This document shows, piece by piece, positions 10,511-62,012 of a stretch of 64,000 nucleotides of DNA. Source of the stretch: Candidatus Bathyarchaeota archaeon (lineage in GTDB: Archaea; Thermoproteota; Bathyarchaeia; 40CM-2-53-6; RBG-13-38-9); NCBI GenBank assembly GCA_963807605.1, contig CAWECG010000001.1, positions 480,001 to 544,000 on the forward strand, written 5' to 3'. The notes under the pieces were generated by a model. The model worked only from the letters and a program-made list of their open reading frames with translations, was not told the DNA's origin and did no database searches. How positions within the stretch are numbered: the stretch's first letter is position 1; each line of letters opens with the position of its first letter. The position numbers and the translations under genes are program-made.

Positions 10511-10642
10511 TTGTGTGTATATGCCCTAATAGTCATAGGTTTCGGCAACGTCGGTAGATCATTTCTGACCATGATAACAGAGGAGAAGGAGAAAATCGCC
10601 AAGAAATTCAATTCTGAACTGAAAACCGTGGCGCGCTGGTAA
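10511..10642 (+). pseudogene. hom: Homoserine dehydrogenase N-terminal fragment
   Basis: ALIVIGFGNVGRSFLTMITEEKEKIAKKFNSELKTVA, then GCGCGC, the TIR and a stop; follows metY as expected. Confidence 0.75.
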
Positions 10643-10644
10643 AT

Positions 10645-10781
10645 TGGTGCGGGGAGTGGGATTCGAACCCACGAAGGCCTACGCCACAGGGTATCCTAGG
10701 TATATCTTGATACCCCCTAAGCTTGACACATCGCGTCATCCGCGATGCCCTGCCCCTTAGGCCAGACTCGGGTATCCCCGC
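10645..10781 (-). tRNA. tRNA-Leu(UAG) with two introns (~26 nt in the anticodon stem 5' strand; 23 nt at 37/38)
   Basis: Acceptor stem GCGGGGA/TCCCCGC-ACCA, T-arm GTGGG TTCGAAT CCCAC, long variable arm; spliced anticodon arm CAGGG CT TAG GA CCCTG; BHB fold for the 37/38 intron. Confidence 0.9.
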
Positions 10782-10938
10782 CCGTGCCAATCGATCTAAC
10801 TGACAGCAATCACGTTATATCTTTATCCCGCAATCGAAGACGGTCGCAAGATCATATTTCCGATAAGTTTGATTAGTTGCTTCTAGATTAATTCTACCAC
10901 CTAAGCCTTCCCAGAAACCGGAAAGAGCCTATGTTGAG

Positions 10939-11235
10939 GTGAGAGTCTTGAGCCGAACCCGCAATGAGGACAGGTTTGAGAGCAATTATCTCACTGCCTT
11001 CAGCAACGTGGTAGCCTCGGACATCAAGATCAGAATTGTCTTGTGCCTGAACAAGACGGAGAAAGGCTCATCCAAGGAGGAGTTTCTTAAGACCTCTCTC
11101 GCTGGAAACGAAGGGATCTTTGAATACAATATCAACGAACTTATCAGATCAGGAGTCGTATCATCCGATTCGCCTTACATGCTGACAAAACTTGGAGAAG
11201 TTGTAGCCAAGAATCTACGACAGGTAATACCGTAA
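10939..11235 (+). CDS. Winged-helix (ArsR-like) domain protein
   Basis: IKIRIVLCL...YNINELIRSGVV...YMLTKLG wHTH pattern. Confidence 0.65.
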   Translation: MRVLSRTRNEDRFESNYLTAFSNVVASDIKIRIVLCLNKTEKGSSKEEFLKTSLAGNEGIFEYNINELIRSGVVSSDSPYMLTKLGEVVAKNLRQVIP

Positions 11236-11314
11236 GACAAAACGTTTGCAATCTGTATTACATTTTTACCGTAGAGCATTTATCACTCTGGTATGCAGGG
11301 CGCACGCGTTGCCC

Positions 11315-11956
11315 TCACCTTACCTTGAATTCGCAACCTAGCTTCTCAGCAATTCTCTCACATTTGGAAATGCCTACGCCCTCAACCTCTACAACTGTCA
11401 ATATGACTTCAGACAGGACTATCTTGCAGTCTCTAGCGAAGTCAAGGACAGCTTGATAGACTCCTGCCAGTGAAGGACTGCAAATCACATCGTATTTCTC
11501 TGAACTTTCGGCATTAAGACTTATCGAGACCGAGTCGATACCAGCATCCTTCAGTTCCGCTGCCACATTCCTCTCCTTATTGATTAGTTGGCCCAGCCCG
11601 TTTGTATTCAAACGGACTTTCAGGCGCGGATATTTCGATCTTATCCTTCGAGTAACCTCAAGGACTATGTCCAATCTTATTGTCGGCTCTCCAAATCCAC
11701 ACCAAACCACTTCCTTATCTGACTCTTTCACCTCATCTTGGAGACCTTTCCAAACCTCATCAACCATCGGTTCCCTGTCGAGTCGCAATCTATAGCCAGA
11801 TAGACCGTCAGAGTGGTTCTTGACACAAAAGGAACATCTGTTTGTGCAACGATTTGTTATGTTCAGATAGATAGTGTCAGGCTTGGGGTCATATCTGTAT
11901 ACGATGCAACCGCCAAGGATGCTTGATTCGTTGGAATTCATTGAACGGATAGTCAT
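11315..11956 (-). CDS. TatD-associated radical SAM protein
   Basis: YLNITNRCTNRCSFC, VVWCGFGEPTIRL, VRLNTNG. Confidence 0.9.
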   Translation of the reverse strand: MTIRSMNSNESSILGGCIVYRYDPKPDTIYLNITNRCTNRCSFCVKNHSDGLSGYRLRLDREPMVDEVWKGLQDEVKESDKEVVWCGFGEPTIRLDIVLEVTRRIRSKYPRLKVRLNTNGLGQLINKERNVAAELKDAGIDSVSISLNAESSEKYDVICSPSLAGVYQAVLDFARDCKIVLSEVILTVVEVEGVGISKCERIAEKLGCEFKVR

Positions 11957-12052
11957 CTGATCTCTTAACCATCTCGTAGGAAAAGAACTGACTAAAGAAA
12001 AAGGATATTCATAGCCCGTCCTTACAGTCTGGATTCGCGCGCGCTAGTGTGC

Positions 12053-12613: not shown

Positions 12614-12711
12614 ACTTTCTAAATCTTCTTGAAAAACTAACAGGCTTATCTCTGCAACCAATATTGTACTAGATGTTCTAAGTTCTTTTTGCTTTTCGCT
12701 ATACACGCACC

Positions 12712-13302: not shown

Positions 13303-13759
13303 CGCGCGCGCTACCGTGAAACCAGAGAAAAACGAGAGATCACACCTAAACCAACTGCGTCATTCAGATCAGCTCTCTCTGAAGTACTAGTTGTCATTTA
13401 TCTCGCTATTGCACGTTTATCTTCAGATAAATCAAGAAATCCTATTGTTTTCTCATTAGCTGAAATTCTTCATACTCTGCATTGACATAATGTGCTCAAA
13501 GGTATTACGAGAAAGGATTAAATGTATTACTTTGGTATACGTAAACCAAGATGTTGGGTAATGATGGAGCTATTAGTCTGTCCACACTGCAGCGAAACCC
13601 TTCGTAATGACGACTACTACCTCCACATCCACCTATGCGCTGCTTGCGCACAAGAATCCGAGACTTGACCGTAGGCGTGCCGCACAAATCATGTGACTGA
13701 AGATCTTTCTCTTAGAACGTTATCTATTTTACGTCTAACTCGTGTGAAGTGTGTAATAG

Positions 13760-14821: not shown

Positions 14822-14876
14822 TCTCCACGCGGATCCTTAGAGTAGATAACCCATCATTGTAAATATCCGCAGGTTG

Positions 14877-15470: not shown

Positions 15471-15531
15471 AAGAGTCGCCCCAAATAGAGCAAGTCAAAG
15501 TAACAGCGCGCGCTAGTCTCAGTGCGTACAC

Positions 15532-16964: not shown

Positions 16965-17012
16965 TTCTGTAGTCTCAGTGAGTTGGCGATTAACACTAGG
17001 GATCGCTCCTCT

Positions 17013-19393: not shown

Positions 19394-19423
19394 GGCACGC
19401 GCTCGGATATCCAGTTTTAGATT

Positions 19424-19947: not shown

Positions 19948-20538
19948 TTACGCGCGGTTATTCTGATCTGTGTCTTTGACCTTCCTGATGAGCCAGACCA
20001 TTTTCTTCCCGAAGTTCTTTGCAGTCAGTAGACCCTCCTCGTCTTTGGTTACTTCCCCTTTTTCTCTGCCAAAGGCTACATTCCAGTAGGTGGAGCCTGG
20101 AACGATCATCCCCTGATGAAGAAGGAAAAACAAAAGTTGGGCAAAGGTAAAGTTGTGTCCTGCTCTCCTCGCGACAACCACCGCCCCACCGATTTTGTTT
20201 TCGAAGACTCTGTTTCTGGCTCCTGACAGTTCTCCAGCTCTGTCGATTAGTGCCTTTATTTGAGGTGTCGCCGAACCGAAGTAAACGGGAGAGGATAAGA
20301 TTATGCCGTCTGCCTCGACCATCTTGTCAAAGATAGGCCTAAAGTCGTCCTTTATTTTGCATTCACCTGTCTTTTTGCAGGATAGGCAAGCATCGCACGG
20401 CTTGATCTCTCTGTTCGCTAAGCTGATCAGTTCTGTTTCAGCACCATCCTCTTTCGCTGCTTTCAGTGTCTCAGCGACTAGACGTTCGGTGTTTCCCCCC
20501 ACTCGAGGGCTTCCAACGATACCCAGTATGCGGATCAT
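19948..20538 (-). CDS. Iron-sulfur flavoprotein (flavodoxin family)
   Basis: GSPRVGGNT, CDACLSC..C, SPVYFG. Confidence 0.92.
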   Translation of the reverse strand: MIRILGIVGSPRVGGNTERLVAETLKAAKEDGAETELISLANREIKPCDACLSCKKTGECKIKDDFRPIFDKMVEADGIILSSPVYFGSATPQIKALIDRAGELSGARNRVFENKIGGAVVVARRAGHNFTFAQLLFFLLHQGMIVPGSTYWNVAFGREKGEVTKDEEGLLTAKNFGKKMVWLIRKVKDTDQNNRA

Positions 20539-24732: not shown

Positions 24733-24862
24733 GGCACGGAATTCAGTCACTGCATTGACAGGTATAATTAAGCTACACCTGAGACGTATACTATAGCGCG
24801 CACGCCCCGCGCGCTACATTTTTAAGATTATCTTTTGATCGAAGGCACAGGTTGGACTCGTA

Positions 24863-26131: not shown

Positions 26132-26362
26132 TGAAAACAAGAATACATATGCGTGCGAATTCTGGTGCTCCTTCGCGTGTGAATCTATCGCGGGACGCAT
26201 AAGGGCGAATAAGAGCATATTTCTGTATATAGAAAAAATGATTCCTCGTCTTGCAGTATATAGAAGGATTAGGGAGGCGTCTACATCGACCCGTGGTTCT
26301 TTGGCCGTGATAGCGCGCACTCAGAGACTAAGCTCGCAAAAGAACTGACAGTTTTGCTTGAC

Positions 26363-27008: not shown

Positions 27009-27318
27009 ATACCATCATCACTGAATCAATCTACATAGGTGCTATTATTGCTATGGGTAGCGTGGGCTTCGCAATCGTCACCCACGTACAGCACGTGTGG
27101 ACTCCGCGCCCTATAAGATCTTTTGGAAGTAGATGAGACATGTTATGATACCGATGAGGTGATGAGTTCATCATCGTCCCATCGGGTTTGAGGATCTTGT
27201 TTGCGGAGATCTTTGTATCGGAGACATTATGCTATCGATGTCACATCAACGACGCGACGAGTGATTGAGCCCAATACGCGCGCGCGTGAACGTCGATAGC
27301 AGCTTGCACTAAGCATCG

Positions 27319-31481: not shown

Positions 31482-31868
31482 CGCGCGCTTAGTAAGGCTT
31501 GTTAAGGCTTGTCGAAGCTTACCAACATGCTTCTCTAGCATTCACCAGAACTGTATACAAATACAGCACATAAGCCTAGTAAGCTTCAGAAGGCTTTGGT
31601 AAGCTTATGATAAGGCTTGTTTGATACGCTTTTGTAGCTTCAGTATGCTAATGTGTACCACTGAAGTATACACTTTGAGACACTTGAACACTGTATCCTT
31701 AGGCATTGAAGACACACTAATCATCATCTGCAAGCACTATCTCAGGCTCAAGTATGTGTACATATGTACGCCTAGCGACCATGACCATAGGATAGAGATG
31801 AACCATAGTAGAATGTACTATGTACTAAGTACCTCGTTGCCGGCCAGAAAGTACAGCACGCGCGCGCG
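31482..31868. repeat. Non-coding block with ~10-bp phased AAG(G)CTT repeats, bounded by (GC)n motifs
   Basis: GCTT at 31487, 31497, 31507, 31517, 31529, 31583, 31593, 31603, 31615, 31628, 31637. Confidence 0.65.
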
Positions 31869-37969: not shown

Positions 37970-38000
37970 CCTAACGTACTATTTTCCCGCGTGCGCAGAA

Positions 38001-38023
38001 TGGTGCGGGGAGTGGGATTTGAA
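38001..38023 (-). repeat. tRNA-Leu 3'-end copy (att-like remnant)
   Basis: TGGTGCGGGGAGTGGGATTTGAA, 22/23 identical to 10645-10667. Confidence 0.8.
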
Positions 38024-38299
38024 GCGAGTACGCCTTAGAGCAAGCATGGTAACTGTGAGCGAGGCCACGAGTGGGAAGATGTATATGGGATACTCTGGAA
38101 TCGGCGTTGAGCCCGCAAACGCATACACCTTACCATCATATGAGCCTACGTATACAACGGTTCCTGAAACAGCAGGAGAAGAATTGACGTTGTTGCCTGT
38201 TGTGTAACTCCATACCTTGGCTCCTGTAGTAGCATTCAACGCATACACATTATCATCCACTGAGCCTACGTACACGATACCTCCTGAAACAGCAGGAGA
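38024..38299 (-). pseudogene. C-terminal fragment of a PQQ-like beta-propeller surface protein with PEF-type anchor
   Basis: SPAVSGGIVYVGS..VYALNATTGAKVW repeats, IPEY + TM + RR; 5' end cut at (GC)n 38300. Confidence 0.8.
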
Positions 38300-38376
38300 C
38301 GCGCGCGCGTTCATGCATCGAAAATACAGCCGAATGTTACCTGACGAGCTATCATGATCACTCCTGTAAGCTAGCG

Positions 38377-40790: not shown

Positions 40791-40860
40791 GAGATGCACA
40801 CACAACGACGCGCGCGCTAAAGATCTTTAGACATCAAGTAACAGAAAGGTTGTCTTGCGA

Positions 40861-41250: not shown

Positions 41251-41409
41251 CTCCTATATTTAGTGTCAATCATCTTATGTAAACCTAGCGTGGACTGGCT
41301 AGTGCGCGCTTTCAGCTTTCATTTAGTTCATTTAGACGTACTTTGATACTAAGGCGAGTATGCCTCTGCATTCAATAATTGGGAAGATCCTCTCCTCCAC
41401 ATCAGGGGG

Positions 41410-44578: not shown

Positions 44579-44758
44579 TTGTTCTCCAATAACAGTCTAC
44601 CACGAAAGCCGCAGATTTAAGACTTGGTCACTGAAGTTCGCTCTTACCTCCGCTATTATGTCTCCCTGAAAAAGCCGATGTCTATTTGTGATTGAGGCTT
44701 TCGAGTCGAAGATAGCGCGCGCGGGAAGTTAATGACTTGATAGAGTCTAGGCTTTCAA

Positions 44759-45421: not shown

Positions 45422-45537
45422 TCACAACCCCCTGCCTGGTCGGAGATCCAGTGGTCGTGCGCGCGCGCGTCCGAAGATCAATGCCCACCAATTCAGAATA
45501 TTCCTCTCTTGAGCCCGTCGTCGGTCGTCGTTTTTGG

Positions 45538-45578
45538 TGTGTGTGTGTCCTTTGGTGAGAGCACTCTAATTTGAACCC
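45538..45578 (-). repeat. Repeat-family copy, inverted partner of 42397-42436
   Basis: TGTGTGTGTCCTTTGGTGAGAGCACTCTAATTTGAACC. Confidence 0.82.
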
Positions 45579-45827
45579 ATGAAGGTCTCCACCACAGGAA
45601 GTGAGTGCCAGCGCGCGCTTGCCTTGATAACTCGTCTGACATCCGCGGGACCGCAGAATAGTCCTCTCTCCAAGGAACGGCGCTGACAAATATTACGCAT
45701 ACGCGTAAATACAGCCAGGTGTTCCACTCACCATAATAGATCGCTTTTCTTTAGGTTTCTAGAGTGTGTATTTGCTGGGTTTTGAAGCGTACGTCTCGCA
45801 ATTGATGCCGGTGGAGTTCTGTGGAAG

Positions 45828-47198: not shown

Positions 47199-47370
47199 GG
47201 AGATATCAAATCCCGATCATAGGCAGAAGACAAAGGATTCTATGCGCGCGCTAGTAGGTTTTCTGGCGAGCCTCTTTAATCCAGAAGCTGGTTTGCTGAG
47301 AGAGTATGGAACCCATCCAGTAGCGCGCGCCCGGGAACCACGAGGAGTCTGTCGTGTATTTTCATCGCGC

Positions 47371-49920: not shown

Positions 49921-50171
49921 TACATCGGCTGGCTATAAGTACACAACGCGGAAGCACTGGAAGGGGCACTTCCATGCAGCCTCTCATGAGATCAGCGCGC
50001 GCTTAGATAAACACCTTGGGCCTGTACATTGTCCCGCACGAGGATTTTGGTGACTATTGATGCTTTCTTCTGGCATGCTTAACTTGGTCATGCTTCAAAG
50101 ATGGGGCAGGGGATTCTGACCCCAATTTACCCGTAGACTCAGCCTTGGGGACACGGATAAGAGGGTCCGTG

Positions 50172-50558
50172 TTAGCCGACTATCTGAGTTATTTCCTTGA
50201 TAATCTCGTTTTCAACGTGGCGGGTCCACAGCATTTCAGGAACATCGATTCCAAGGAAGAGAACGGACAGTAACAATGTTTCGACGGCTGCGACTGCAAG
50301 ATTTTGTATCAATTTTCCGATTCCAACATGCACTGTGAAATCGTTCGGTTGCCCTGAAAGGGTTATTGTGAACGCCCGATCGGCGGTGATAATGTCTCGC
50401 AGTATCCCAGCCTTTTGAGCCTGAATCACTTGTCCTAACGGAGCCGTGGTGGACTGGACCTTGTATCCTTCAACCTGTAGTTGTTTAACTATTTGTTGCG
50501 ATAGTTGGGTCAGATCCTTATTCTTTCCTTGAAAACGCAATACTTTCTCTGAAACCAT
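50172..50558 (-). CDS. Conserved hypothetical protein
   Basis: Clean 128-aa ORF with upstream GGTG RBS-like sequence. Confidence 0.7.
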   Translation of the reverse strand: MVSEKVLRFQGKNKDLTQLSQQIVKQLQVEGYKVQSTTAPLGQVIQAQKAGILRDIITADRAFTITLSGQPNDFTVHVGIGKLIQNLAVAAVETLLLSVLFLGIDVPEMLWTRHVENEIIKEITQIVG

Positions 50559-50648
50559 TTAAAATTCACCACAAATATAACTACGATACCGTCTAATTAA
50601 CGTTTGACGTGGCGAGCCTGAAGGTCAATTCCATCGTACCCTTGGGAT

Positions 50649-50889
50649 TCAAGTTTGGGTCTTCTTCTTGCCTTTTGGTACATAGTCGAAGAAACGTTCT
50701 GTGACACCATCCCCGGTCCATTCTGCACGCAATCTTGTACGGCGTTCCGCTTTACGCATCTCTTACAGTGGCCTGCGGTTGAGATCGCGTGCGCTCCCCC
50801 CGTTCAGCTCAGCTTCAACTTCGAATCCTTCCGCTGTAGCGCGCGCTTCGTTCCAGTTCTTCTTTATCGTTGCTTTTCTTTTCCGTCAT
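50649..50889 (-). pseudogene. Degraded small hypothetical gene with internal (GC)n breakpoint
   Basis: MTEKK..ELER, then GCGCGC at 50839, then another frame GFEVEAELNGGSARDLNR..*..RLRAEWT..ERFFDYVPKG. Confidence 0.55.
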
Positions 50890-50904
50890 GAGTTGAATTT
50901 TGGC

Positions 50905-51189
50905 CTATAGACTTTTGAATGCGCCCTTCAACTCCGTGATAGGCGACTTCAGGTTGAGCGCGTCCTTGATGCTTTCTATCGAAGTGGTTGGAACTCTTCC
51001 CTTTGCATGACGCAGTACAATCATCTTGCCTAGAACCTCTTTTGCCGCCTCTTTCCGGAACTCAACTATAATGTTGGTCACCTTCATTTCGGAAGGGTCG
51101 AATTCCAAGTCCTTAACTTTTCCAAGATTAACCATGTCTTTGCTGTAAACCACGATGTTCTTGATGTTGCTAGCAAACAAACACGACAC
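50905..51189 (-). CDS. PRC-barrel domain protein
   Basis: VVYSKD..LGKVKDLEFD...VP..IESIKD. Confidence 0.8.
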   Translation of the reverse strand: MSCLFASNIKNIVVYSKDMVNLGKVKDLEFDPSEMKVTNIIVEFRKEAAKEVLGKMIVLRHAKGRVPTTSIESIKDALNLKSPITELKGAFKSL

Positions 51190-51284
51190 CTAAGAATCGT
51201 ATTGATATCACAGACCTAAAAGAGTATGCTGAATCTTAGTCTTGCTACGTGGCTTACGCACGCGCTATATCGATGTTCGCGCGC

Positions 51285-52389
51285 AGGGTTGTCCCGATAT
51301 TCTTTGAGTTGACACGGAAAGATCCATAAGGGTTGAGCCCCGCACCCTTCTACTTGGAGGAGATTCCAGATAGAAGGGTACGAGACTCTGGAGTCACTGC
51401 TGAGTAATCTGGATTTATCATTTGTTGAACGTCTAGTTGTTAGTTGCTATCATCAAGAAGGTCCAGGTAAACCTCCACGTAACCCTCTAGGACTCTTCAA
51501 GGCACACCTTGCCAGACGCTACCTCAGAATAAACAGTCTGCGTGAGCTTGAACGTCGCTTATGGATCGATGAGCGGCTACGTGACATATGCGACATAAGA
51601 TATGAGGAGCCAGCCTACGGTAGGACGGTACTCTCAAGATTCAACCAGCGACTAGGAACAAGAAGACTAAGACGCATAGTAAACAAACAGGTCAAGAAAT
51701 TACTGAAGAAGCGCTATGTAACACCAAGAATAGTTGCTATGGACGCCACCTTCATCAAAGCCTACAGCAGACGAAACATAAACAATAGAACAGGCTTCAG
51801 TGACCCTCAAGCACGTGTAGGAAGAGCCTACCGCACATACGGGTTAGGCTACAAACTACACCTAACAGTCGATACAGACACAGCCACACCCCTAACATTC
51901 CTAGTGACACCAGCAAACACTAACGAGAAGAAACCGAGCATACCACTCCTCAAAATGACAGTTAAAACCACAGCAACCAGAATCCGACAGCTAACCGCTG
52001 ACAGTCAATACTCCAGCAACAGACTCAGAGAGACCGCTAAAAAACACAGAATCAAGACCGCGATACCCTACCCAGCCAACCAGAAACCTGAAAGACAAAA
52101 CATCCTCAGAGTAACCAGCGACTTCAAAACACACGGCCCAGAAAACCTCAAACACATCTACAATAAACGCTCCATCATCGAGTTGGTCTTCGCATCACTC
52201 AAAGAACACCTCAACCTCAACAACCACAAGACACGAGGACTAGAAAACATCACCATCCACATCAGCTACTGCATACTATGCCTCCTCTACACCATAGAAG
52301 CCTCACACAACACCAAACAACCCACCAAAACCAGAAGCATAACCTACTGGACAAACCTAACATGAAAACGCTAATAACGGGACAACCCC
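51285..52389 (+). mobile_element. Insertion sequence (DDE, IS4/IS5-like), 1105 bp, ~17-bp TIRs, 6-bp TSD GCGCGC
   Basis: Left AGGGTTGTCCCGATATT; right (reverse complement) GGGGTTGTCCCGTTATT; GCGCGC at 51279-51284 and 52390-52395. Confidence 0.9.
51333..52365 (+). CDS. DDE transposase (frame open from 51337; TTG start at 51333 is out of frame, so possibly frameshifted)
   Basis: MDAT, GYKLH, LTADSQY, YNKRSIIELVF; upstream SLRELERRL in the same frame. Confidence 0.88.
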
Positions 52390-52466
52390 GCGCGCTATTT
52401 GAAGCCGTTCAGATGAAAACACTGCTTTAATAGACGTGACGAATGAAATAATAGAGTGGAAATAAA

Positions 52467-52781
52467 ATGCCGATAGATCCAGACTTCATGAAGAAGTCCA
52501 AGAAGCATGGCCAGCACAATGACCATGACGTTTGGGGCGAAGTGAAGCCGCCTGAAAAACTGGGAATTCACGGTACCAACGTAGCTGTAGACCATGAGGT
52601 GTGTACTGGCGATGCTATCTGCGTTGATGTCTGTCCAGTAAACGTATTCGAAATGATCGACAGCCCCGGACATCCAACCTCAGCCAGCAAATCAGATCCC
52701 GTCAGGGAGCCAGACTGCATCTTCTGCATGGCCTGTGAAACAGCATGTCCAACGAAAGCCATCAAAATAACTCCAAAATAG
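52467..52781 (+). CDS. Dicluster ferredoxin of the zinc-containing archaeal type
   Basis: MPIDP..H..H.VWG..LGIHGT, CTGDAICVDVCP, CIFCMACETACP. Confidence 0.9.
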   Translation: MPIDPDFMKKSKKHGQHNDHDVWGEVKPPEKLGIHGTNVAVDHEVCTGDAICVDVCPVNVFEMIDSPGHPTSASKSDPVREPDCIFCMACETACPTKAIKITPK

Positions 52782-53030
52782 AAAACCAAAATATCAACTG
52801 CAATCTCCTCCAAGCGTCTACCTGAAATTTCAATGATAACTTCTGAAATCCCGAATAAGTTAGAAATAGGGGAAGGCCGCGCGCTCGATATACCTAAGAC
52901 TTGTTGCTGTTCACCAATGAAGAAGGTCGATTAAGGGCATAACTCTAGCCTGTTCACGCGTACCATGTACGTCTTATCACTTCACTTTTTTTTGACTCGT
53001 CCTATGATGAAAAATATGTGGGATATCCTG

Positions 53031-53374
53031 ATGATAAAGACAAAAAGGGTCTATGAAAGGCCATCAAGGGAAGATGGAACTAGAATTTTAGTCGATAGGT
53101 TATGGCCTAGAGGAATTAGTAAAGATGCTGCAAAAGTTGATGAGTGGATGAGGGAGATCGGGCCGTCCGACAAATTAAGAAAATGGTTCGGGCATGATCC
53201 CAAAAAATGGGACGGGTTTAGAAGAAGATACGTGGAAGAGTTGAAGCAGAAGAGCGACTTGACGAACAGATTAAGCTTGATATCGAAGAAAGGAACATTG
53301 ACCTAGTCTATTCAGCCAAGGATGAGCTTTTCAACCAAGCAGTAGCATTGAAACAGTTCTTAGAAGAAGCCTAA
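53031..53374 (+). pseudogene. DUF488/YeaO-family protein, frameshifted near 53302
   Basis: RILVDRLWPRG, LRKWFGHDP; LVYSAKD..NQAVAL lies in another frame. Confidence 0.85.
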
Positions 53375-53463
53375 CTGTTCCAGCCTTGGTTGAGAGTTAG
53401 TTTGAGAATAGGAGCGCGCGCACAGGGTATTTGCAAACACAAAAGAGATTCACACTTGGGTGT

Positions 53464-53586
53464 TGGTGCTCCGGGCGGGATTTGAACCCGCGATCAGCGA
53501 CTCTGAGGAGGCTTTCCCCGCTCTAAGGCACGAAAGGCCGCTATGCTGTCGGCCCTGCCTTGCTAACCGGGCTACACCACCGGAGC
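53464..53586 (-). tRNA. tRNA-Glu(UUC) with D-loop and anticodon-loop introns
   Basis: Acceptor GCTCCGG/CCGGAGC-ACCA, T-arm GCGGG TTCAAAT CCCGC, GCGGC CT TTC G anticodon arm interrupted by extra sequence. Confidence 0.85.
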
Positions 53587-53715
53587 ACCTTAGGAAAGCA
53601 AGCTCTTCAACCTTTAATCTCTTTCGAACTTTCCCGTGGAATAAGAAACTCAGCTTTCTATCTCTTGGAATTATAAGGAACAAAACGCCGATATCTTACA
53701 GCAACAAGGATTTCA

Positions 53716-54006
53716 CTATCTGATGTGGAAGTCTTGAAATTCCCCTTTCCACGACTCCCACTCAATTTCAGCATCCTCAACTTCAGCACCGGGAGGACCC
53801 CTCCTGCAAAACTCCAACATCCCGTCAACCTTTTCCTTATCTCCCTCGAAAACGGCTTCCACCCGCCCGTCTGGCAAGTTTCTAACCCAGCCCGAAACCC
53901 CTAGCAGTGAAGCACCCTTCCTCGTCTCGTGTCTGAAGAAGACACCTTGAACCAACCCACTGACGTAAACGTGCGCCCTAACCTTCAACCAGCCTAGACC
54001 CCACAC
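53716..54006 (-). CDS. acyP: Acylphosphatase
   Basis: VSGLVQGVFFR, GWVRNLPDGRVE. Confidence 0.95.
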   Translation of the reverse strand: MWGLGWLKVRAHVYVSGLVQGVFFRHETRKGASLLGVSGWVRNLPDGRVEAVFEGDKEKVDGMLEFCRRGPPGAEVEDAEIEWESWKGEFQDFHIR

Positions 54007-54105
54007 ACCATTGCGAATTTACGTTAACAGCGCGCGCGCTCTAAGATTTCTGCTAACTAGTTCTAAGACCTGCCCAAATTTATCAGTTAAATATCCTGAC
54101 AAAAA

Positions 54106-54819
54106 CTACGACCGCTCACTCTCTAGGAGTGTAATTTGAGCAAAAAAGCCTGCAAACTCTCCTCTCAGGGCTCTAGAAGCCCCAGTAATCAAGGCGAAAT
54201 ATACTACCTTTGGCATATCCCATCCGGCCTCGTGGTACTCCTTTGCAATATCGATTTCGAAAGTGGACCAGGCATTCAGTTTCGCTTCTACAACCTTAAT
54301 CCTGTGATTGCCAATCATGAAAACGTCTGACTTCTGATCTGAGAAGACCACCCATAACAAATGTTGACCGTCGCTGATCTCTAAGCCAAAAGCAGTGTCA
54401 GGCATTTTCGTGGTCTTATCATAGACATATGGAAAGGTAGGGTAGACGGAGAGTTGCACACGTGAGTTAAAGAGCCTAGAAAGTTTATCAGCCTTGACTT
54501 CCTGTATTACTCGAACCATGGCCCAAACATACTGATCATTCATCCCATCTTGGAAGAGATGTATGCCCAAGCATCTTTGGCGATCCACAACATCCTGCCT
54601 CAAGTAGGCACTATCACCCGGGCCAAGAGATTGTTCAACATCCCAGTAGAGCAGGCCAGTTCTGCCGTTTCCAGAAGTATCAGAATAAATGTACTTCAGG
54701 TCAGTGTTGAGAAGGATCGGTTGCATGTAGACCTGCCCCTGATAGCTGATGAAGGCAAAAGCCAATACTGTGGCTGCTATCAGTATGCTAGCCGCTGAAA
54801 TGTAGCGGTAACCAACCAT
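54106..54819 (-). CDS. Secreted/membrane-anchored hypothetical protein, paralog A
   Basis: N-terminal TM; shares FG.EI.DG..LLW.VFSD and HRI motifs with the neighbour. Confidence 0.75.
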   Translation of the reverse strand: MVGYRYISAASILIAATVLAFAFISYQGQVYMQPILLNTDLKYIYSDTSGNGRTGLLYWDVEQSLGPGDSAYLRQDVVDRQRCLGIHLFQDGMNDQYVWAMVRVIQEVKADKLSRLFNSRVQLSVYPTFPYVYDKTTKMPDTAFGLEISDGQHLLWVVFSDQKSDVFMIGNHRIKVVEAKLNAWSTFEIDIAKEYHEAGWDMPKVVYFALITGASRALRGEFAGFFAQITLLESERS

Positions 54820-54861
54820 GGCGTCTCCCCCCTCAATATTGGTTAGGCCTCATCCTTTATT

Positions 54862-55557
54862 CTAGTCAACTAGAACTTTCGAAAAGTATCCTTGAAATGT
54901 TCCAGGAAGATTCCTCGTTGAACCCATCACAAGGCTGAAAGAGAGCGAATCAGGCTGCTTGCGGGTAAGCTTAGCATATTCTGCTCCAACATCTATCTCC
55001 CTGTATGACCATTGATGCAACGGAGTCTCCACAATAACAATCCTATGACTTGGCAGACTATAAGCTTCAGATTTCGAATCGGAGAAAACAAACCAGAGAA
55101 GGTTGCTACCATCATTAATCTCTACTCCAAACACATTCAGTGGCTGTCTCATCTCCCCAGCATATTTGTAGGAGAAATTAACATATAGCCAGATGCCAAT
55201 CTTAGACTTTAGAAATTCTCTGAGTGCTTGTCCCCTAATGTCCTGTCGGATATGCACGCTTGCCCAGGTATAAGAATCATTCAAGCCATCTTGATATACA
55301 CTGATCTTCATGCATTCTCTACCCGAAATACGGGTGGGTATGAGCGAGATACTGTCGTTGCCTCCTAGAAAGTAGTCGGTAGTCCACATGTACGGCTTTA
55401 ACCCACCTTGGGGTTCGCGCGTCCAATATCGAAAGTCATTATTCAAGAGGATTATGGAGGGTGACTCTTGACCGTAGTAGTTTGCGAAAGCGATGTAAAC
55501 TGATGCTCCACTAAGAATAATCGATGCTAGAAGGAGGGGCGGTCGCCAGTTTATCAT
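54862..55557 (-). CDS. Secreted/membrane-anchored hypothetical protein, paralog B
   Basis: As for paralog A. Confidence 0.75.
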   Translation of the reverse strand: MINWRPPLLLASIILSGASVYIAFANYYGQESPSIILLNNDFRYWTREPQGGLKPYMWTTDYFLGGNDSISLIPTRISGRECMKISVYQDGLNDSYTWASVHIRQDIRGQALREFLKSKIGIWLYVNFSYKYAGEMRQPLNVFGVEINDGSNLLWFVFSDSKSEAYSLPSHRIVIVETPLHQWSYREIDVGAEYAKLTRKQPDSLSFSLVMGSTRNLPGTFQGYFSKVLVD

Positions 55558-56793
55558 CGTTCTTCAGCTGAGATCTGGGTTATAGCAACTATGAGCATTG
55601 GTATCCAGTAAATAAAATATGTCTGTAGTCCTCGGAACGAGAACCATAATATTAATGGTGGAAATGCCCAGAGAGCGAACTTCAATCTGTCAAAGTAGAG
55701 GTAGTAGTTAAGCAAGAGGACAAAAAAAACAGTCAGAGTACAGATCGTGTAGAAGGCTGGGGGCAGAGGTACGCCACTCACTTGGGAGATCATAGACAAC
55801 CCTTGCGAAAGGATAACTAAACCTGCAGATACAGGAGTCAAAACGCCGTCTATCCAGGCGGGTAAGTTCCAGACGATAAAACGGATATTTGGCACTAGGA
55901 AAGCAAGAGATGTGTACGACAAAAACATCAGACAACGTCTCTTACGGAGATTATTAGGTGCTGATCTCCACTGCCAAACAAGAAGGAATGGGAAGGCAAG
56001 CCAAGTAATCTGTTTGATTGCGCATGCTAATCCATAAGCCACGCCTGCTCTCAGAGGTTTATCGATTTCGAATGCAACTATTACAAGTGGTAGAACCCAA
56101 AGGAAGTCTGTTACAGAACCAGCAGTAAAATCAATGGCAAGATCTGACCCTGCAAGGATGGGGAGCAGACCAATAACCTTGAAGTGTGGAGGCAACTTCC
56201 TATACATTAGAAGAAGCGTAGCGAATTCAAATGCCAAAACGACGAAACGCATGTCTCGGGATACCGATCGCGACTGCAGGCACAAATATCAAGAAATGAA
56301 GTGCAGGATAATTCATAGTTGTGATTATCTTTCCAGTAGAGGTGAGTGTAAAAAATTCTGGATCTACCGAGAAGGCTGCAAGACCTTCGTGGAGGTCCGA
56401 ACCGTACGGGTTGTCTCCATGAAGCAGAACTTTGGCTGCTTGATGACTTAGAGCCATAGCATCAGTTCTATAAACGCCTTCGAACTCAACCACTGCTGTT
56501 ACGTATGTGCTGACAACAATTACAAATATTATTGCCAGAAGAGCAACAGTTGAACCCAATCTCAGATTAAGCGGCCTGAGTGTAGCCAAAAAGAATAGTG
56601 TAAAAGCAAACAAATACGTAGTTATAATAAGAATGACAACCTCAGGATGAGTTGTGATTTTGCCTCTTATCCAGTTCTGATGGCCCTCTGCGAGTAATAA
56701 GCCAGCTAGAAAGAGTAATGAAATCCTTACAACAAACTCACCAGACTTGCCGAGAGACATCATTATTGATGACCCTTCTTTGATAGTTCTCAT
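55554..56793 (-). pseudogene. GT-C (GT87-like) membrane glycosyltransferase, frameshifted near 56259
   Basis: TDA..HQAAKVLLHGDNPY, NYPALHF..., then RDMRF, GLACAIKQ in the second ORF. Confidence 0.75.
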
Positions 56794-57153
56794 ATCTCTT
56801 GCGCGCGCTATGAGTAGAATTGGATTTACTGGTACTTGAAGCTTAGTAACACTTTTTCTAGCGCGCGCTAGATACTGATTGCGGATCAGGAAACGATGAC
56901 GAGTGTATGTTTAAAACTCTGGCCTCTGGGGCGAGCACTACGGGACAGGGTCAACGTGGAACCCTGCGCGCGCGTGACCAGACTACTGAGATCATTATCA
57001 TGAGTTTTGGTTTACCGTTGACTCTTCTTAGAAGAGTGTGTGCACCACACTGCTATACTTAGACAAGCGAATCTTTCGGACTCGTAGATTATCTTGAAGA
57101 GGATAATTCTCTCTTAATGAGCTCTTAAAAAATGGGCTCACATTCCACCTGCT

Positions 57154-58272
57154 CTAGGAAACCCAGACCTGTAGCACAAATTGGTACCAGATAAGTAAGC
57201 TCGCTAACATAAAAAATGTGACTGCAACGGCCAAGGCTAACAGGTTTCTCATTCTAACAATCAACCAGACTGGAAAGATGAACGAGAAGAATCTTGGAAG
57301 AGAGTTATAGTTACCAAAGTACAGTAATGACAGATACACTGAGAGACTATAGATTGCAAGTTTACCGTCGATTCTAAAGACACAGAAGACTAGATACCCA
57401 GTGAAAATGATGAACGGCAGTAGGAAAAAATCGAATTTTGGGAATGCCAAGACATTACTGCTAAGGAACGGTGTGATGTAGCGTTGGAACCATCCAAACT
57501 CGAAAGCTTGCTTTATCCAGAATGACTGTTGCGTTGCAAAGGCAAATGCATCTCCAGTTGTAAGGTACAGATAGTACATCCAGCCGAGAAGGGCAGTAAT
57601 AGGCACTGAGATGATCGGAAACTGTTTGAATTTCCTCTTGAGAAGCAGATTAAGAGCTACGGGAATAACTATGGCTACTCCATACGGTCTTGTCAGGGTT
57701 GCGACGGTTGCTGCTAACATTGAAGAGATGAACCTGCCCCGAAGATGGAGATACCACGTGGCGAGTGTAGAAAAGAGGAAGAGGGACTCTGTATAAGAGA
57801 CTGTTGTGAAGAGGAAGACGTAGGGGAAGGTTGCAGTCAACAATGTTGAAGCAGCCGCCTCAGCTCTTGACATGTAATGTTCAGCAACAAGCTGAAGCAA
57901 AGGAATAGAGGCCAAGCCGAGTACAAAAGAGATGATGAAGGCTGAGAGCCAAAAGTCCCCTGTCATCAGTTCAACCGCCTTGCAGAGGACTGGGTAGGCT
58001 GGGAAGAAGACGTACATTGGAGGATAACTATACCACTCCTTGGCCAACTTGATATACCAGCCGGTGTCTTGTGCACTGAAAAGGTAGAGCCACAGTTGGG
58101 TTGGACCTAAAGTACCCCAAATACTCATCCACGGAGTTTTGAAGCTTCCCTGAATGCTGAGACGTTGATAGATAAAGAGTGAACTGAAAAGTTTCAGGAG
58201 ACTAACGATACTAACAGGGAAGATAAGGCGCACCTTCCCCTCAAGCATCTTCGCTGCAGTATCTTGCAACAT
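57154..58272 (-). CDS. PIG-V-like mannosyltransferase (GT-C)
   Basis: QDTGWY..LA, VFFPAYP, YTESLFL, LTRPYG, LPRF. Confidence 0.85.
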   Translation of the reverse strand: MLQDTAAKMLEGKVRLIFPVSIVSLLKLFSSLFIYQRLSIQGSFKTPWMSIWGTLGPTQLWLYLFSAQDTGWYIKLAKEWYSYPPMYVFFPAYPVLCKAVELMTGDFWLSAFIISFVLGLASIPLLQLVAEHYMSRAEAAASTLLTATFPYVFLFTTVSYTESLFLFSTLATWYLHLRGRFISSMLAATVATLTRPYGVAIVIPVALNLLLKRKFKQFPIISVPITALLGWMYYLYLTTGDAFAFATQQSFWIKQAFEFGWFQRYITPFLSSNVLAFPKFDFFLLPFIIFTGYLVFCVFRIDGKLAIYSLSVYLSLLYFGNYNSLPRFFSFIFPVWLIVRMRNLLALAVAVTFFMLASLLIWYQFVLQVWVS

Positions 58273-58559
58273 ACCAAGAGACTCCAGAAGTAACTCAGGT
58301 ATTTCCTGAAGATAACAACTCCTTCTTTATGAGTTCCTTGATTGTGATGCTGAGGGTTCTTGTCGGAGCTTGCTCACGATCCTCGGAAGTGGCGTAGACT
58401 TCGAGCGCTAATAGGCGGGCCATGACCTTGAAGACTCGTTTGTAACCAAAATGCCGACCATAGCGGATCCTGCGCAGAAAGTAGAGGTCTAATCCTGAGA
58501 GCTGAAGGCCCCCTGCAGAACAAATATTCACTTAATGAAGTAAATCCGGACGCGCGCGC

Positions 58560-58830
58560 TTGTTTAGGCAATCCACTCCTTCGATACAAATTGGAACCAT
58601 ATAAGTAAGCTCATCAAAAGGAAAAAGGTAACCGCAACAACCAAAGCAAACAGGTTTCTCACTCTGGCGGCAAACCATACTGGAAAGATGAAGGAGAAGA
58701 ATCGTGGAAGTGAACTGAGGTTACCAAATTACAGTAATAAGAGACACGGTGAAAGACTGTAGACTAGCGCGCGCTAAGCAACCAAATATGAAATATCCAA
58801 GTGGAAACTTAATATGCCAAAAAAATCCAG
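58560..58830 (-). pseudogene. Remnant of a paralog of the 57154-58272 mannosyltransferase 3' end
   Basis: Clear nucleotide similarity to 57170-57400; bounded and interrupted by (GC)n at 58551 and 58767. Confidence 0.8.
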
Positions 58831-58968
58831 CTTGAATAATTAAGCCGGTACCAACGTTTCTCTATGTATTCTTCTCGTTTTTTTGGGCTATTCGATCTTT
58901 TCAAAAATAATAAGCCATCTCGGTCTACGTGAGAGCGCGTAAGGAATTGGCAGGAAAAAGGGGTCTCA

Positions 58969-59388
58969 CTATTCTCCGATGATTGTTATCAGGACTTCTC
59001 TCTCCGCAGGGCCGAGCATTTCAAGAAGATAGGCTGCCTGCCACTCTCCCAGCTGAAGTCTGCCCTTTCGAATGGGAATCTGTAAGCCACTTCCCAGGAC
59101 CATGCCCAACGTGTGGCTACGAACTATCTTAGGATCGAATCCTCGGGTTTCAAGATAATTAAGCCTCGTCTTGTCCAGAAAGTCTATTGAGTCAAAGAGC
59201 CTTGCTATGACAGGCTCCTCGCGCTTAACCCCTGTCGTCAGGAGAGCTGTCGTGTGTTTAGCAGATCCGAATAGAATACCCTCCTTGACACCTGACTCAG
59301 CGACTGCGTTAGCCAGTTGGTCGGTCACTTCAATAACCTGTCTTCCAGTCTCGGTCTTTAACCTCAGATCCTTAGTGAAGATCTTCAT
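58969..59388 (-). CDS. YjbQ/UPF0047 family protein
   Basis: HTTALL, SH, LQLGEWQ..YLLE..GP.ER. Confidence 0.82.
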   Translation of the reverse strand: MKIFTKDLRLKTETGRQVIEVTDQLANAVAESGVKEGILFGSAKHTTALLTTGVKREEPVIARLFDSIDFLDKTRLNYLETRGFDPKIVRSHTLGMVLGSGLQIPIRKGRLQLGEWQAAYLLEMLGPAEREVLITIIGE

Positions 59389-61838
59389 TCAAATGCACTC
59401 TCCTCAGCAGTCTCAGGGCTCTGCCTCTCAACCGACAATCGCGAATGGAGGGCAGACTCCATCAGGACCTTCCGCTCGATCTGAGCCACCATCTGCCGGG
59501 TCTGCACGGCAACATCTTGATTGATGCTTATGCTATCTATCCCGTTACGTATCAGGAACTCTGTAAAGTCCGGAAACTCCGACGGTGCCTGACCGCATAT
59601 CGATACCTTTCCCCCATTCTTGTGGACAACTCTGATGAAGTGTTGAATGGCTCTCAGGACCGCCTCGTCGCGCTCGTCAAAGACCTTCGACAACTTGGAT
59701 GAGTCACGGTCGCATCCTAGAATAAGTTGTGTCAGATCATTACTCCCGATGCTGAAGGCATTCACGAGCTTCGCAAACTGATCTGCAAGGATGACGTTGG
59801 AGGGAACCTCACACATCATCCAGATTTCAAGATCATGACTTCGACTGAGACCCATCTCCGCCATTATCTGAAGGACTCTCCTAAGCTCGTTTGGAGTGCG
59901 GACGAAGGGGATCATAATGTGTAAGTTCTTGAATCCTCGCTCTTCACGGACCTTCTTTATTGCCTCAAGCTCAAGCCTGAAGGCAGGCTCGTAAGCTGGG
60001 TCGACGTATCTGCTTGCGCCCCGCCAGCCGAGCATGGGATTATCCTCTTGAATCTCGTACTTCTCACCGCCCTTCAGCGAACGATACTCATTGGTCTTCA
60101 GATCCGAGAGGCGCACGACGACGGGGCGAGGAGCGAAAGCCTCAGTCACTTTCGAAATCCCGTCAACCAATCCGTCGATGAACTTTTCAGGCCTCCCAGT
60201 CTCAATCAGGTGCATCGGATGTTCTCCAACGTAGGTCGCTAGGATGAATTCCATCCTCATCAGGCCGACACCATCCACTGGGAGCTTACCGGCTTCAGCT
60301 GCACGTTCCGGAACGCCGAGGTTAACATAGATCTTGGTGCCTGTGACAGGAGCCTCGGCCTGCGTGAATGTATATGGAGTGGCTTGTCTCGCCGGTAATG
60401 TCCCCTCCTCAAGTGCGGGCTTGGGCCCTAACGCTTCAGGCAACAACCCTTCGTAGACAGTTCCTCGCGAGGCATCGACGGTGATGTACTGGCCTGTTCG
60501 AAGTTTCTTTGTCCCATCACCGGTGCCGACTACACAAGGTATGCCCATCTCTCGGGAGACTATGGCGGCATGGCAGGTCATTCCACCTTGATCTGTCACT
60601 ATCGCGGCGGCCTTCCGCATGATGGGAACCCAGTCCGGAGTCGTCATATCTGTCACAAGAACCTCGCGGTCCTTGAATTCGGAGGACTTTTCCAAGTCAA
60701 GGATAATGTGAGCTTCACCCGCTGCAGTACCCGGTGATGCTGGAAGTCCAGTCAGAAGTTTTCTACGCTCGGTGGTCGGCTCGACTCTTTCTCTGATCTC
60801 CTTCGTCTCCTTCTTGACTGTGAAGATGTGCTCTTTCATCTTCTCAGTCCAGACCGTCTCCGGTCTACTCTGAACAATATACAACTTATTACTGTCAGCC
60901 TCCAGGGCCCACTCCATATCCTGTGCTATCTTGTAATGCTCTTCCAAGCTCACTGCATATCGGGCAAGTTCCTTGATCTGGTCATCGCTGAGGCAGGGCA
61001 CGTTCTGAAGGTCCGCAGGAACCTGTTTTTCCTCTGTTCCACCTTCAGGCTTTGCCAGGAGCATGGTCTTCTTGACGGCTATCTTCTTGCTTGCAATCTT
61101 GAGGTCTGACTTTGAGATGATATACTCGTCTGGAGTAATCCTGCCTTGGACGATGAATTCTCCCAAACCCCATGAGGCTTCGATGACGACAACCTTCCTA
61201 TCGCCTGTCACTGGATGAAGAGAGAACATTACCCCGCTGGCTTTTGCAGGAACCATCTTCTGCACTCCGACGCTGAGGTAGACCTTCTCATTGTCGAAGC
61301 CCTTCTCTTCTCGGTAAGTCGTTGCTCTGGGTGTGAAGAGGCTTGCAAAGCATTTCTTTACGCTCGTGAGTAATTCCTTGACTCCCTTTACGTTAAGGTA
61401 CGTATCCTGCTGACCTGCAAAACTTGCTCCTGGAAGATCCTCAGCCGTCGCTGAAGATCTGACGGCGACAAGTACCTCTTTCTGCCCCTCTGCGGTGCTG
61501 AGTTTGGTATAGTATGACGATATTTCCTCAGCAAGTCCGTCGGGCATATCGGCTGTCTCCATGATCTCTCTGACCTTTGAAGTCTTCTCGTTAAGTTGCT
61601 TGAGATCCTTTACATCAAGATCTGATAGGAGTGAAAAGACCCTGTCCCTAATGCCGCTCCTCTCAAGGAAGAACCTGTACGCATACGAAGTGACGGCAAA
61701 TCCTGGGGGAACTGGAACCGCTGCCTTAGTTATCATCTCTCCGAGATTGGCACATTTGCCACCGACAAGAGCTGTGTCCTCTTTACCGATCTCAGTGAAC
61801 GGCAGAACAAACCTTTTCTCTTTAGGAGTCTGGCTCAA
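59385..61838 (-). CDS. ppsA: Phosphoenolpyruvate synthase
   Basis: VGGKCANLGE, RSSATAEDLP, GGMTCHAAIVSRE, SIGSNDLTQ. Confidence 0.97.
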   Translation of the reverse strand: MSQTPKEKRFVLPFTEIGKEDTALVGGKCANLGEMITKAAVPVPPGFAVTSYAYRFFLERSGIRDRVFSLLSDLDVKDLKQLNEKTSKVREIMETADMPDGLAEEISSYYTKLSTAEGQKEVLVAVRSSATAEDLPGASFAGQQDTYLNVKGVKELLTSVKKCFASLFTPRATTYREEKGFDNEKVYLSVGVQKMVPAKASGVMFSLHPVTGDRKVVVIEASWGLGEFIVQGRITPDEYIISKSDLKIASKKIAVKKTMLLAKPEGGTEEKQVPADLQNVPCLSDDQIKELARYAVSLEEHYKIAQDMEWALEADSNKLYIVQSRPETVWTEKMKEHIFTVKKETKEIRERVEPTTERRKLLTGLPASPGTAAGEAHIILDLEKSSEFKDREVLVTDMTTPDWVPIMRKAAAIVTDQGGMTCHAAIVSREMGIPCVVGTGDGTKKLRTGQYITVDASRGTVYEGLLPEALGPKPALEEGTLPARQATPYTFTQAEAPVTGTKIYVNLGVPERAAEAGKLPVDGVGLMRMEFILATYVGEHPMHLIETGRPEKFIDGLVDGISKVTEAFAPRPVVVRLSDLKTNEYRSLKGGEKYEIQEDNPMLGWRGASRYVDPAYEPAFRLELEAIKKVREERGFKNLHIMIPFVRTPNELRRVLQIMAEMGLSRSHDLEIWMMCEVPSNVILADQFAKLVNAFSIGSNDLTQLILGCDRDSSKLSKVFDERDEAVLRAIQHFIRVVHKNGGKVSICGQAPSEFPDFTEFLIRNGIDSISINQDVAVQTRQMVAQIERKVLMESALHSRLSVERQSPETAEESAFE

Positions 61839-62012
61839 GACTGATCTAGTTATTATTCTCAGTTTCCCGAATTAAGTCTGATCTCATTATCGCTAAATAT
61901 CATTCAGAACGCGGGACCAGATTTACGAGCTAAGCGCGCGCTTAGAAAAGGATCTTTCAAATCCTTTGCGTTTAAGGGATAATTCCTAATATTGAGAGAG
62001 TGCCTCTAGGGG

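Follow-up and report, generated by a model that had tools for sequence, protein, structure and literature searches.

Here we describe short runs of alternating G and C that sit at DNA joints in a metagenome-assembled genome of Candidatus Bathyarchaeota (G000; 2.65 Mb, 47% G+C, five contigs, labelled C1–C4 where they are named below). On balance we lean towards the reading that these runs are filler, written de novo by a heritable activity where two DNA ends are joined, and are neither pre-existing sites nor regulatory signals. The runs are dense in the window, by which we mean the whole 64,000-nucleotide (nt) stretch analysed (C1:480001–544000); positions given without a contig label are window positions. 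Relatives are labelled G001 and upwards, G001 being congeneric with G000.

The hexamer GCGCGC has 55 overlapping matches in the window against an expected 6.41 ± 2.61, a count reached in none of 100 dinucleotide-preserving shuffles. An initial annotation had listed 31 (GC)n loci here, and all 31 are present, each at most 1 base from where it had been placed. It had also seen none of them inside an intact coding sequence, and this holds: no confidently called gene contains any of the 31, and the site at 40809 overlaps just a low-scoring open reading frame (ORF) of 68 codons. Two CGCGCG hexamers outside that list do fall in ORFs, one at 19951 (at the stop of ORF 19948–20538) and one at 55416 (within ORF 54862–55557). 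The typical run has the form (T)A-(GC)4-T(A), and across joints a fixed short sequence recurs, (T)A-(GC)3–5-T(A). The exact 12-mer TAGCGCGCGCTA has 2 copies in the window, and the 10-mer AGCGCGCGCT has 7, with 106 in the genome. The core region at window positions 1–10630 carries no runs.

Defined as alternating G/C tracts of at least 6 nt, runs number 768 in the genome and are 6–15 nt long. With genes called by a simple hexamer-trained caller (80% coding), 78% of GCGCGC matches fall outside called genes, compared with 14–25% for most other CpG-rich control hexamers and 31–53% for control hexamers that overlap the motif (for example, GCGCGT). Put for the genome as a whole, a comparison of coding with intergenic DNA that the initial annotation had called for, about 80% of the runs lie in the 20% of the DNA that is non-coding. 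They are clustered in accessory islands, with a variance-to-mean ratio of 4.4 per 20 kb, and 23 of 129 20-kb bins have no run at all, core regions among them.

Runs mark the ends of homology

To locate the ends of homology, the genome was aligned to itself with BLAST, which gave 2879 distinct alignment ends. A run lies within 3 bp of 6.8% of these ends, compared with 0.38% of genome positions, which is a 17.7-fold enrichment; measured against non-coding DNA alone it is 7.4-fold. Stated as ranges, the enrichment is 15–18-fold relative to the genome and 6–7-fold relative to non-coding DNA. Breakpoints were found at 120 of the 768 runs, 75 of them in low-copy sequence. Of 55 low-copy breakpoints, 47 have a partner copy that lacks a run within 8 nt and goes on in unrelated sequence, and 19 of these 47 run-free partner positions fall in called genes. 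Just 12 of the 768 runs lie within repeated sequence that extends to either side of them. In site-specific recombination, whether at integron attC-like sites or with a dispersed palindrome as the crossover point, both partners carry the site; here the partner is run-free in those 47 of 55 cases, as is the empty site of a 1761-bp insertion described below.

Truncated genes were sought by blastx of run flanks against the genome's own proteins, counting alignments whose paralog continues for at least 30 amino acids (aa) past the stop. Such stops number 65 at 0–5 nt from a run and 13 at 6–11 nt, over a background of about 5 per 6-nt bin. About 70 gene fragments break off no more than 11 nt from a run. 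Five genes in the window had been named as broken at a run, and three of these breaks are borne out. A homoserine dehydrogenase (hom) fragment at 10511–10636 corresponds to residues 5–40 of an intact 342-aa paralog (C3:916700–917728; 53% identity, E = 7.5e-8), is confirmed as Pfam Homoserine_dh, and breaks off at the run, with the CCA end of a tRNA-like gene 8 nt away; comparison of the fragment with solved structures gave no significant match, and ARAGORN does not call the tRNA-like gene at 10645–10781. A single codon separates the run at 38300 from the start of the beta-propeller remnant, which shares 84% identity with blades of a 703-aa protein (C1:338504–340615). In the mannosyltransferase remnant, about 10 codons of the neighbouring intact paralog (FCVFRIDGKL) give way at 58767 to the 4 codons that the run reads as (A*RA), so that this joint looks like a small deletion plus filler. 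No support was found for the two other proposed breaks: the claimed MFS fragment at 13303 has no significant match, and the small hypothetical gene near 50839 (50905–51189) aligns over nearly its full length to a paralog.

The flanking bases belong to the added sequence

Base-by-base alignment of 41 low-copy breakpoints placed the canonical T beside the run in 30. This T is missing from the partner in 18 of the 30 and shared in 12, the latter being near the roughly 30% chance match of an added T. A T taken over from the joined DNA or from a duplicated target would always match, and its absence from the partner in 18 cases therefore indicates that the flank belongs to the added sequence. Run and partner overlap by 0–1 nt in most aligned breakpoints, with microhomology of 0–4 nt. 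Among 360 non-coding runs of at least 7 nt, A precedes the run in 73% and T follows it in 73%, and the two flanks are independent: both occur together in 191 runs, compared with 191.4 expected, and there is no left–right coupling at positions 2 and 3 either. At position −2, T occurs in 35%, compared with 73% at +1.

In outline, a heritable and patchily distributed activity would add to the 3′ ends of broken or free linear DNA a short tail that begins with A and continues in alternating G and C. As these tails would be self-complementary, any two tailed ends could anneal, be filled in and be ligated. The product would be an A(GC)nT palindrome with each flank determined separately from the other, and repeated use would build mosaic accessory islands. 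The tail might be copied from an RNA, be dictated by a protein or come from reiterative synthesis.

An empty site in a sister strain

A sister strain is represented by Logan contigs from four metagenome sequencing runs (soil or unspecified) of two studies, which are 95–97% identical to G000 over parts of window 44001–64000. Alignment to relatives, proposed with the initial annotation as a check, yielded one joint at which the run is absent from the empty allele. Relative to the sister strain the window holds a 1761-bp insertion containing a mannosyltransferase gene, with a run at each end; the sister-strain contigs join 56797 directly to 58559, reading catatct-CTTG-tttagg, an empty site without a run. 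Elsewhere, the stretch 52860–53453, which includes two runs, is represented by 86 other letters in the sister strain, and homology to the window breaks off at two runs, 58767 and 61934, where several of the contigs also end. Several runs are reproduced in the sister-strain contigs, and the one at 54030 differs in length by 2 nt.

Relatives carry two flank dialects

Counts of 10-mers across 401 genomes of the class revealed a patchy distribution. AGCGCGCGCT is abundant in some genera of the family (119 copies in G001, 63 in G003 and 44 in G010) and absent or rare in sister genera (0 in g5, 0–4 in g8) and in other families of the order. The patchiness extends to the level of the genus: genomes of g16 have 83, 10, 7, 3, 1 and 0 copies. 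The flanks form lineage dialects that are nearly mutually exclusive, A(GC)nT here and T(GC)nA in other families of the class. The ratio of AGCGCGCGCT to TGCGCGCGCA is 106:1 in G000, 119:1 in G001 and 131:4 in G106, and it is 11:46 in G229, 1:30 in G207 and 0:15 in G266. A 400-kb sample of G229 is equally enriched in GC runs, with T...A flanks dominating, and 5 of its 70 homology ends fall at runs, which cover 0.43% of that DNA.

Run-bounded gene modules of the window map to other contigs and other neighbours in G001. The G001 ortholog of the FMN-reductase gene comes with a separate run, about 85 nt from its stop (9 nt here), with unrelated DNA beyond. In motif-poor genomes we found no alternative filler: in the sister genus g5 (396 kb of G005) there is merely a mild excess of CGTCGACG, and G149 and G108 (400 kb each), which have an intact copy of the PriS-like gene considered below, show no alternative motif.

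Observations against the proposed written filler and the search for a source

Several observations weigh against the reading of the runs as filler written at joints. There is a single clean empty-site comparison, and in paralog pairs we infer the direction of change and do not observe it. About 20% of the runs lie within ORFs called by the gene finder, which is crude. GC half-runs bound insertion sequence (IS) family A in 7/7 copies and family B in 6/7, which keeps an origin linked to transposases in play. Finally, no enzyme or template for the filler was found in G000 and its relatives, as detailed in the remainder of this section.

Ku/LigD was rejected as the source: LigD_Prim-Pol was not found in the motif-rich genomes G001–G004, G007, G009, G010, G013 and G015, and it is present in the motif-poor G016 and G025. 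Additions of the Ku/LigD type are random or templated by the flank, and the runs are instead the same A(GC)nT at hundreds of joints. G000 does contain a bacterial-type end-joining operon (C1:590566–592231), with a LigD primase-polymerase domain, Ku and a 91-aa ATP-ligase fragment, which few relatives have. A reverse transcriptase was likewise set aside, as PF00078 has no match in G000 and in 29 of 30 relatives, with matches in G013 only. PolX-PHP (C1:345080–346909) is core in family f22 with or without the motif and is missing from most motif-rich genomes of the A type, and it too was dropped. In G000 the PolX-PHP gene is complete and stands beside an IS in a run-rich island; in this family it is sporadic, with orthologs of 61–70% identity in G004, G099, G370 and G394.

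The genome has an archaeal-type PriS, which, like the intron-bearing tRNA-like gene of the window, fits an archaeal origin. Besides canonical PriS, the genome encodes three PriS-like proteins, one of which is the LigD polymerase domain. The second, a core paralog (C3:316905–317681), was rejected: it occurs in motif-poor genera, was not found in the motif-rich g3 and g4, and is followed by a conserved convergent gene and no RNA. At this convergent junction of core genes (the C3:316905 region and the orthologous loci L027–L033), seven genera carry differing CG-rich near-palindromes (TAGCGCCGAC, TAACGTCGACGT, TAACGCCGGC and others), which may be old, decayed fillers.

The third, a stand-alone protein of 297 aa (C3:72234–73127), has the PriS catalytic motifs. 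Its gene is sporadic, often pseudogenised and sometimes truncated at a run. It occurs in 9 of 52 motif-rich genomes versus 5 of 349 others (odds ratio 14, p = 6e-6, a test that overstates the association as the genomes are related). It tracks the motif weakly: many motif-rich genomes lack it, and two motif-poor genomes have an intact copy. No conserved RNA was found upstream or downstream of it in G000, G001, G229, G149, G108, G150 and G363, and the elements that flank it have no second copy in C1:405–475 kb. With four seeds from the primase superfamily, phmmer detected no additional members in the genome.

Two repeat families were considered as candidate template RNAs and are not favoured. 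A 100-nt family with a TGGTGAG box has no common neighbour gene, and its run lies at a variable edge. A family of about 90 nt with an internal CGCGCG has no Rfam match, consistent fold, common neighbour or linked enzyme. This second family is RNA-like, dispersed and intergenic; it has a GGTTCA motif resembling a T-arm and a hexamer that varies, reading CGCGCG in three copies. Its copies include C3:578337–578420, C3:167353–167437, C1:478735–478874 (1.1 kb before the window) and 8 more, and the adjacent gene encodes a C_GCAxxG_C_C redox protein. Runs of (AC)n/(GT)n are also over-represented: ACACACACAC occurs 56 times in the first 400 kb of C3, compared with 0.27 expected, and such runs, in the form ...GTGTGTGCTCACCA, often terminate members of a repeat family that is about 100 nt long, has at least 10 copies and contains a conserved hairpin (for example, C3:498265–498425).

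Alternative explanations

The main rival, which we judge unlikely, is a transposase-linked origin, in which the runs would be IS termini left after excision or a transposase would mobilise (GC)n-bounded segments. G000 has three IS families, A, B and C, all with DDE_Tnp_1 transposases. That GCGCGC flanks families A and B at either end, as it also does family A in G001 and G012, is in keeping with this origin. So are the patchy phylogeny and the dialects, which are as IS invasions would give, and the (GC)n at both ends of the 1761-bp insert, where a 4-nt ambiguity (CTTG) could be a target duplication. However, the insert has nothing in common with the ends of an IS except the run, and about 450 runs of at least 7 nt contrast with about 14 copies of families A and B. 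Target-site duplications and flanking direct repeats are no more frequent around adjacent run pairs than around random pairs. Flanks that derive from a TA target would make T as common at position −2 as at +1, which it is not (35% versus 73%), and the flank T would be found in the partner, from which it is absent in 18/30. By the same three measures the flank is not homologous to an uninterrupted sequence, and a transposon excision footprint is disfavoured.

The IS copies themselves bear on the order of events. Those of family A at 51285–52388 and two other places are 100% identical while the surrounding DNA differs by 3–5% from the sister strain, so the insertion is recent. The sister strain is without this IS and has at the empty site a 9-nt CG run (5-bp target duplication), which is most simply a pre-existing target of the insertion. 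We read families A and B as specialists for runs, and the runs as preferred insertion targets once present. Family C (DDE_Tnp_1_5) is evidently active and makes ordinary 8–9-bp duplications at unrelated sites (for example, C3:532249–533329); its 8 copies are 99.9–100% identical, and one of them adjoins a run.

About equally improbable is a pre-existing hotspot, in which (GC)n tracts arose first, by slippage or selection, and then attracted breaks, recombination, or a site-specific nuclease or recombinase through the fragility of Z-DNA or cruciforms. It would account for the insertion of IS into existing runs, as at the 9-nt run of the sister strain, for the polymorphic run length and for the recurrence of runs near the same gene ends in G000 and G001. 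Yet the partner copies and the one empty site have no run or GCGC at the breakpoint, and the joined DNA is not the source of the flank base. Nor would a generic physical property yield A...T flanks in some lineages and T...A flanks in others to their mutual exclusion, and a hotspot leaves unexplained the hundreds of identical non-coding 10-mers in some genera and none in sister genera.

We consider it very unlikely that the runs are a functional intergenic signal, such as a protein-binding or boundary palindrome kept by selection, whose position at module borders is a by-product. The predominantly non-coding location fits such a signal, as do the palindrome, which is of the kind bound by dimeric proteins, and the many runs that lie 10–80 nt from gene ends. 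However, runs are distributed among convergent, divergent and tandem spacers as expected from spacer length, and this lack of bias argues against a promoter or terminator role. Of the properties of a regulatory motif, neither a bias in orientation or position nor an even spread over operons was found in the genome: runs cluster in accessory islands, as described above, and long core stretches are run-free. Sister genera of the same gene content have no runs, run length varies, and runs occur inside pseudogenes and at truncation points.

An assembly or library artefact, that is, chimeric joins from sequencing or binning in a metagenome assembly of five contigs, is effectively refuted: contigs from two other studies, the independent evidence that had been asked for at the outset, cross the runs and reproduce several of them, so the runs are not assembly chimeras, and the motif is found in dozens of independently assembled genomes and has been entered by IS copies.

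The homology ends, run-free partners, truncations, scarcity of runs within repeated sequence, spacer neutrality and empty site support the initial annotation in preferring a scar of joining over a regulatory site. Among the three origins that it had offered for such a scar, an end-joining linker or filler fits best; a transposon footprint is disfavoured by the flank analysis, and a recombination hotspot fits solely in that IS elements target runs.

Features of the window

The coordinates of the runs and associated features are given in Table 1. One run-bounded operon (31884–37969) encodes a Cas4-like nuclease fused to an SF1 helicase, an Mre11-like phosphoesterase and a Rad50-like ATPase. The same operon in G001 has other neighbours (segments homologous to window 10639–11875, inverted).

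Table 1. Alternating G/C runs of the window and the features that adjoin them, in order of position
Feature	Position	Strand	Remark
Homoserine dehydrogenase N-terminal fragment	10511..10636	+	Cut at run
gtgGCGCGCtgg GCGCGC run	10631..10636		Joins 41-codon hom fragment to DNA 8 nt from tRNA 3′ end
tRNA-like gene, probably intron-containing tRNA-Leu	10645..10781	-	CCA end 8 nt from run; read from the sequence
attCGCGCGCGCtag run	12036..12044		9 nt beyond FMN-reductase stop; homology to copy C2:44341-44957 begins 2 nt after run
gttCGCGCGCGCtac run	13303..13311		Within 1-kb gene-free stretch
acaGCGCGCGCtag run	15506..15513		Between two minus-strand genes; 68-bp homology to C4:22216-22283 begins 2 nt after
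Two runs 7 nt apart, ataGCGCGCacgcccCGCGCGCtac	24796..24814		Between genes 24043-24732 and 24863-26131
ataGCGCGCact run	26313..26318		Intergenic spacer
ataCGCGCGCGCGtga run	27277..27286		Intergenic spacer
cacCGCGCGCtta run	31482..31488		Intergenic spacer
gcaCGCGCGCGCGtaa run	31859..31868		16 nt ahead of nuclease-helicase/Mre11/Rad50 operon
Beta-propeller remnant	37982..38299	-	Two blades and C-terminal anchor
agaCGCGCGCGCGttc run	38300..38309		Truncation point of PQQ-type beta-propeller fragment
cgaCGCGCGCGCtaa run	40809..40817		111-bp repeat homology ends within run
agtGCGCGCttt run	41304..41309		Intergenic spacer
ataGCGCGCGCGgga run	44715..44723		Intergenic spacer
cgtGCGCGCGCGCGtcc run, 11 nt	45459..45469		
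ccaGCGCGCGCttg run	45611..45618		71-bp homology to C3:50490-50560 ends 1 nt ahead of run
tatGCGCGCGCtag run	47244..47251		Intergenic spacer
gtaGCGCGCGCccg run	47323..47330		41 nt beyond 3′ end of P-type ATPase gene
tcaGCGCGCGCtta run	49995..50002		Intergenic spacer
gtaGCGCGCGCttc run	50839..50846		Neighbour gene 50905-51189
Left half-run beside IS	51278..51284		
IS, DDE_Tnp_1 transposase, family A	51285..52388	+	100% identical to two other copies
Right half-run beside IS	52389..52395		
Runs 52878-52884 and 53414-53421, and DUF488 gene	52860..53453		In variable segment
acaGCGCGCGCGCtct run	54030..54039		2 nt shorter in sister-strain contigs crossing it
1761-bp insertion relative to sister strain	56798..58558		Run at each end; holds mannosyltransferase gene
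Runs 56801-56808 and 58551-58559	56798..58558		One per end of 1761-bp insertion
Internal runs 56861-56868 and 56966-56974	56798..58558		Inside 1761-bp insertion
Intact 372-aa PMT_2-like mannosyltransferase paralog	57154..58272	-	
Mannosyltransferase pseudogene remnant	58567..58833	-	Paralog residues 279-372, 57% identity, two in-frame stops
ctaGCGCGCGCtaa run	58767..58774		Inside mannosyltransferase remnant; sister-strain homology stops here on both sides
ctaaGCGCGCGCttag run, 16-bp palindrome	61934..61941		Between PEP-synthase gene and next; sister-strain contigs diverge on both sides

Discussion

The runs share features with several known systems. Dispersed short palindromes, some of them targeted by IS, include HIP1 of cyanobacteria and the REP/BIME elements of enterobacteria. 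As with these, the runs are an over-represented, scattered short palindrome that is used as an IS insertion target; unlike the runs, HIP1 is common within genes, and REPs are structured elements of greater length that are conserved as units. We know of no case in which HIP1 or REP elements lie at homology breakpoints or gene truncations or are absent from the unbroken allele.

Joints with added nucleotides are familiar from end joining: N- and P-nucleotides (TdT and Pol mu in V(D)J recombination), the templated insertions of Pol theta and bacterial non-homologous end joining by Ku/LigD. Known fillers of this kind are random, take their sequence from neighbouring DNA or form palindromes with the flank. 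The runs resemble them in that the extra nucleotides are absent from both parents and lie exactly at the joint, together with small deletions and microhomology of 0–4 nt, but differ in that hundreds of joints share one sequence; G000 has both Ku/LigD and PolX, yet neither tracks the motif across relatives.

Telomerase adds telomeres de novo in chromosome healing, and interstitial telomeric repeats are found at repaired breaks in eukaryotes. In bacteria, DRT10 synthesizes tandem repeats by means of a reverse transcriptase and a non-coding RNA (bioRxiv 10.1101/2025.10.16.682844). The likeness to both is that of a fixed, lineage-specific short repeat at broken ends that is kept as an internal scar, and telomere repeats also differ between lineages, as the filler does. 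Here, by contrast, neither G000 nor most of its motif-rich relatives have a reverse transcriptase, and no template RNA was found. Unlike telomeres, moreover, the filler joins two ends and forms no protective cap, and its tracts are 6–15 nt long.

Terminal transferase activity and template-bridging synthesis are reported for the archaeal primase PriSL, and primase-polymerases for mobile elements (PMC3333859, PMC5862659, PMC11724360). Members of the superfamily can extend 3′ ends without a continuous template, which offers a parallel to the filler, and the stand-alone PriS-like gene is enriched in motif-rich genomes. The parallel is limited here by the weakness of that association, with the gene absent from many motif-rich genomes. 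To our knowledge, no primase writes a defined sequence.

We put forward a more specific version of the filler model tentatively, as one that is doubtful as it stands. In it, a polymerase other than a reverse transcriptase, most plausibly of the primase superfamily and from mobile DNA, would copy a short template that varies by lineage (A-GCGC... or T-GCGC...), provided by a partner RNA or by its own protein surface, onto free 3′ ends; the tails would glue any two ends, a telomerase-like 'DNA glue' that would drive gene shuffling and the capture of foreign DNA in Bathyarchaeia. The dialects fit an RNA template and a protein-specified sequence equally.

Our literature search found no account of the motif or of a comparable archaeal joining scar. 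If filler of this kind is indeed written at joints, it would represent a mode of joining, with a defined, self-complementary and lineage-specific filler, that has not been described for any prokaryote. The existence of two dialects offers comparative genomics a direct way to find the determinant. The reading, if true, would also point to an enzyme activity that tails DNA ends with a defined sequence and would have obvious applications as a tool. Each joint would be tagged, leaving a readable record of rearrangement from which genome histories could be reconstructed, and the activity would explain how mosaic accessory islands are built in an abundant, uncultured lineage of sediments and soils.

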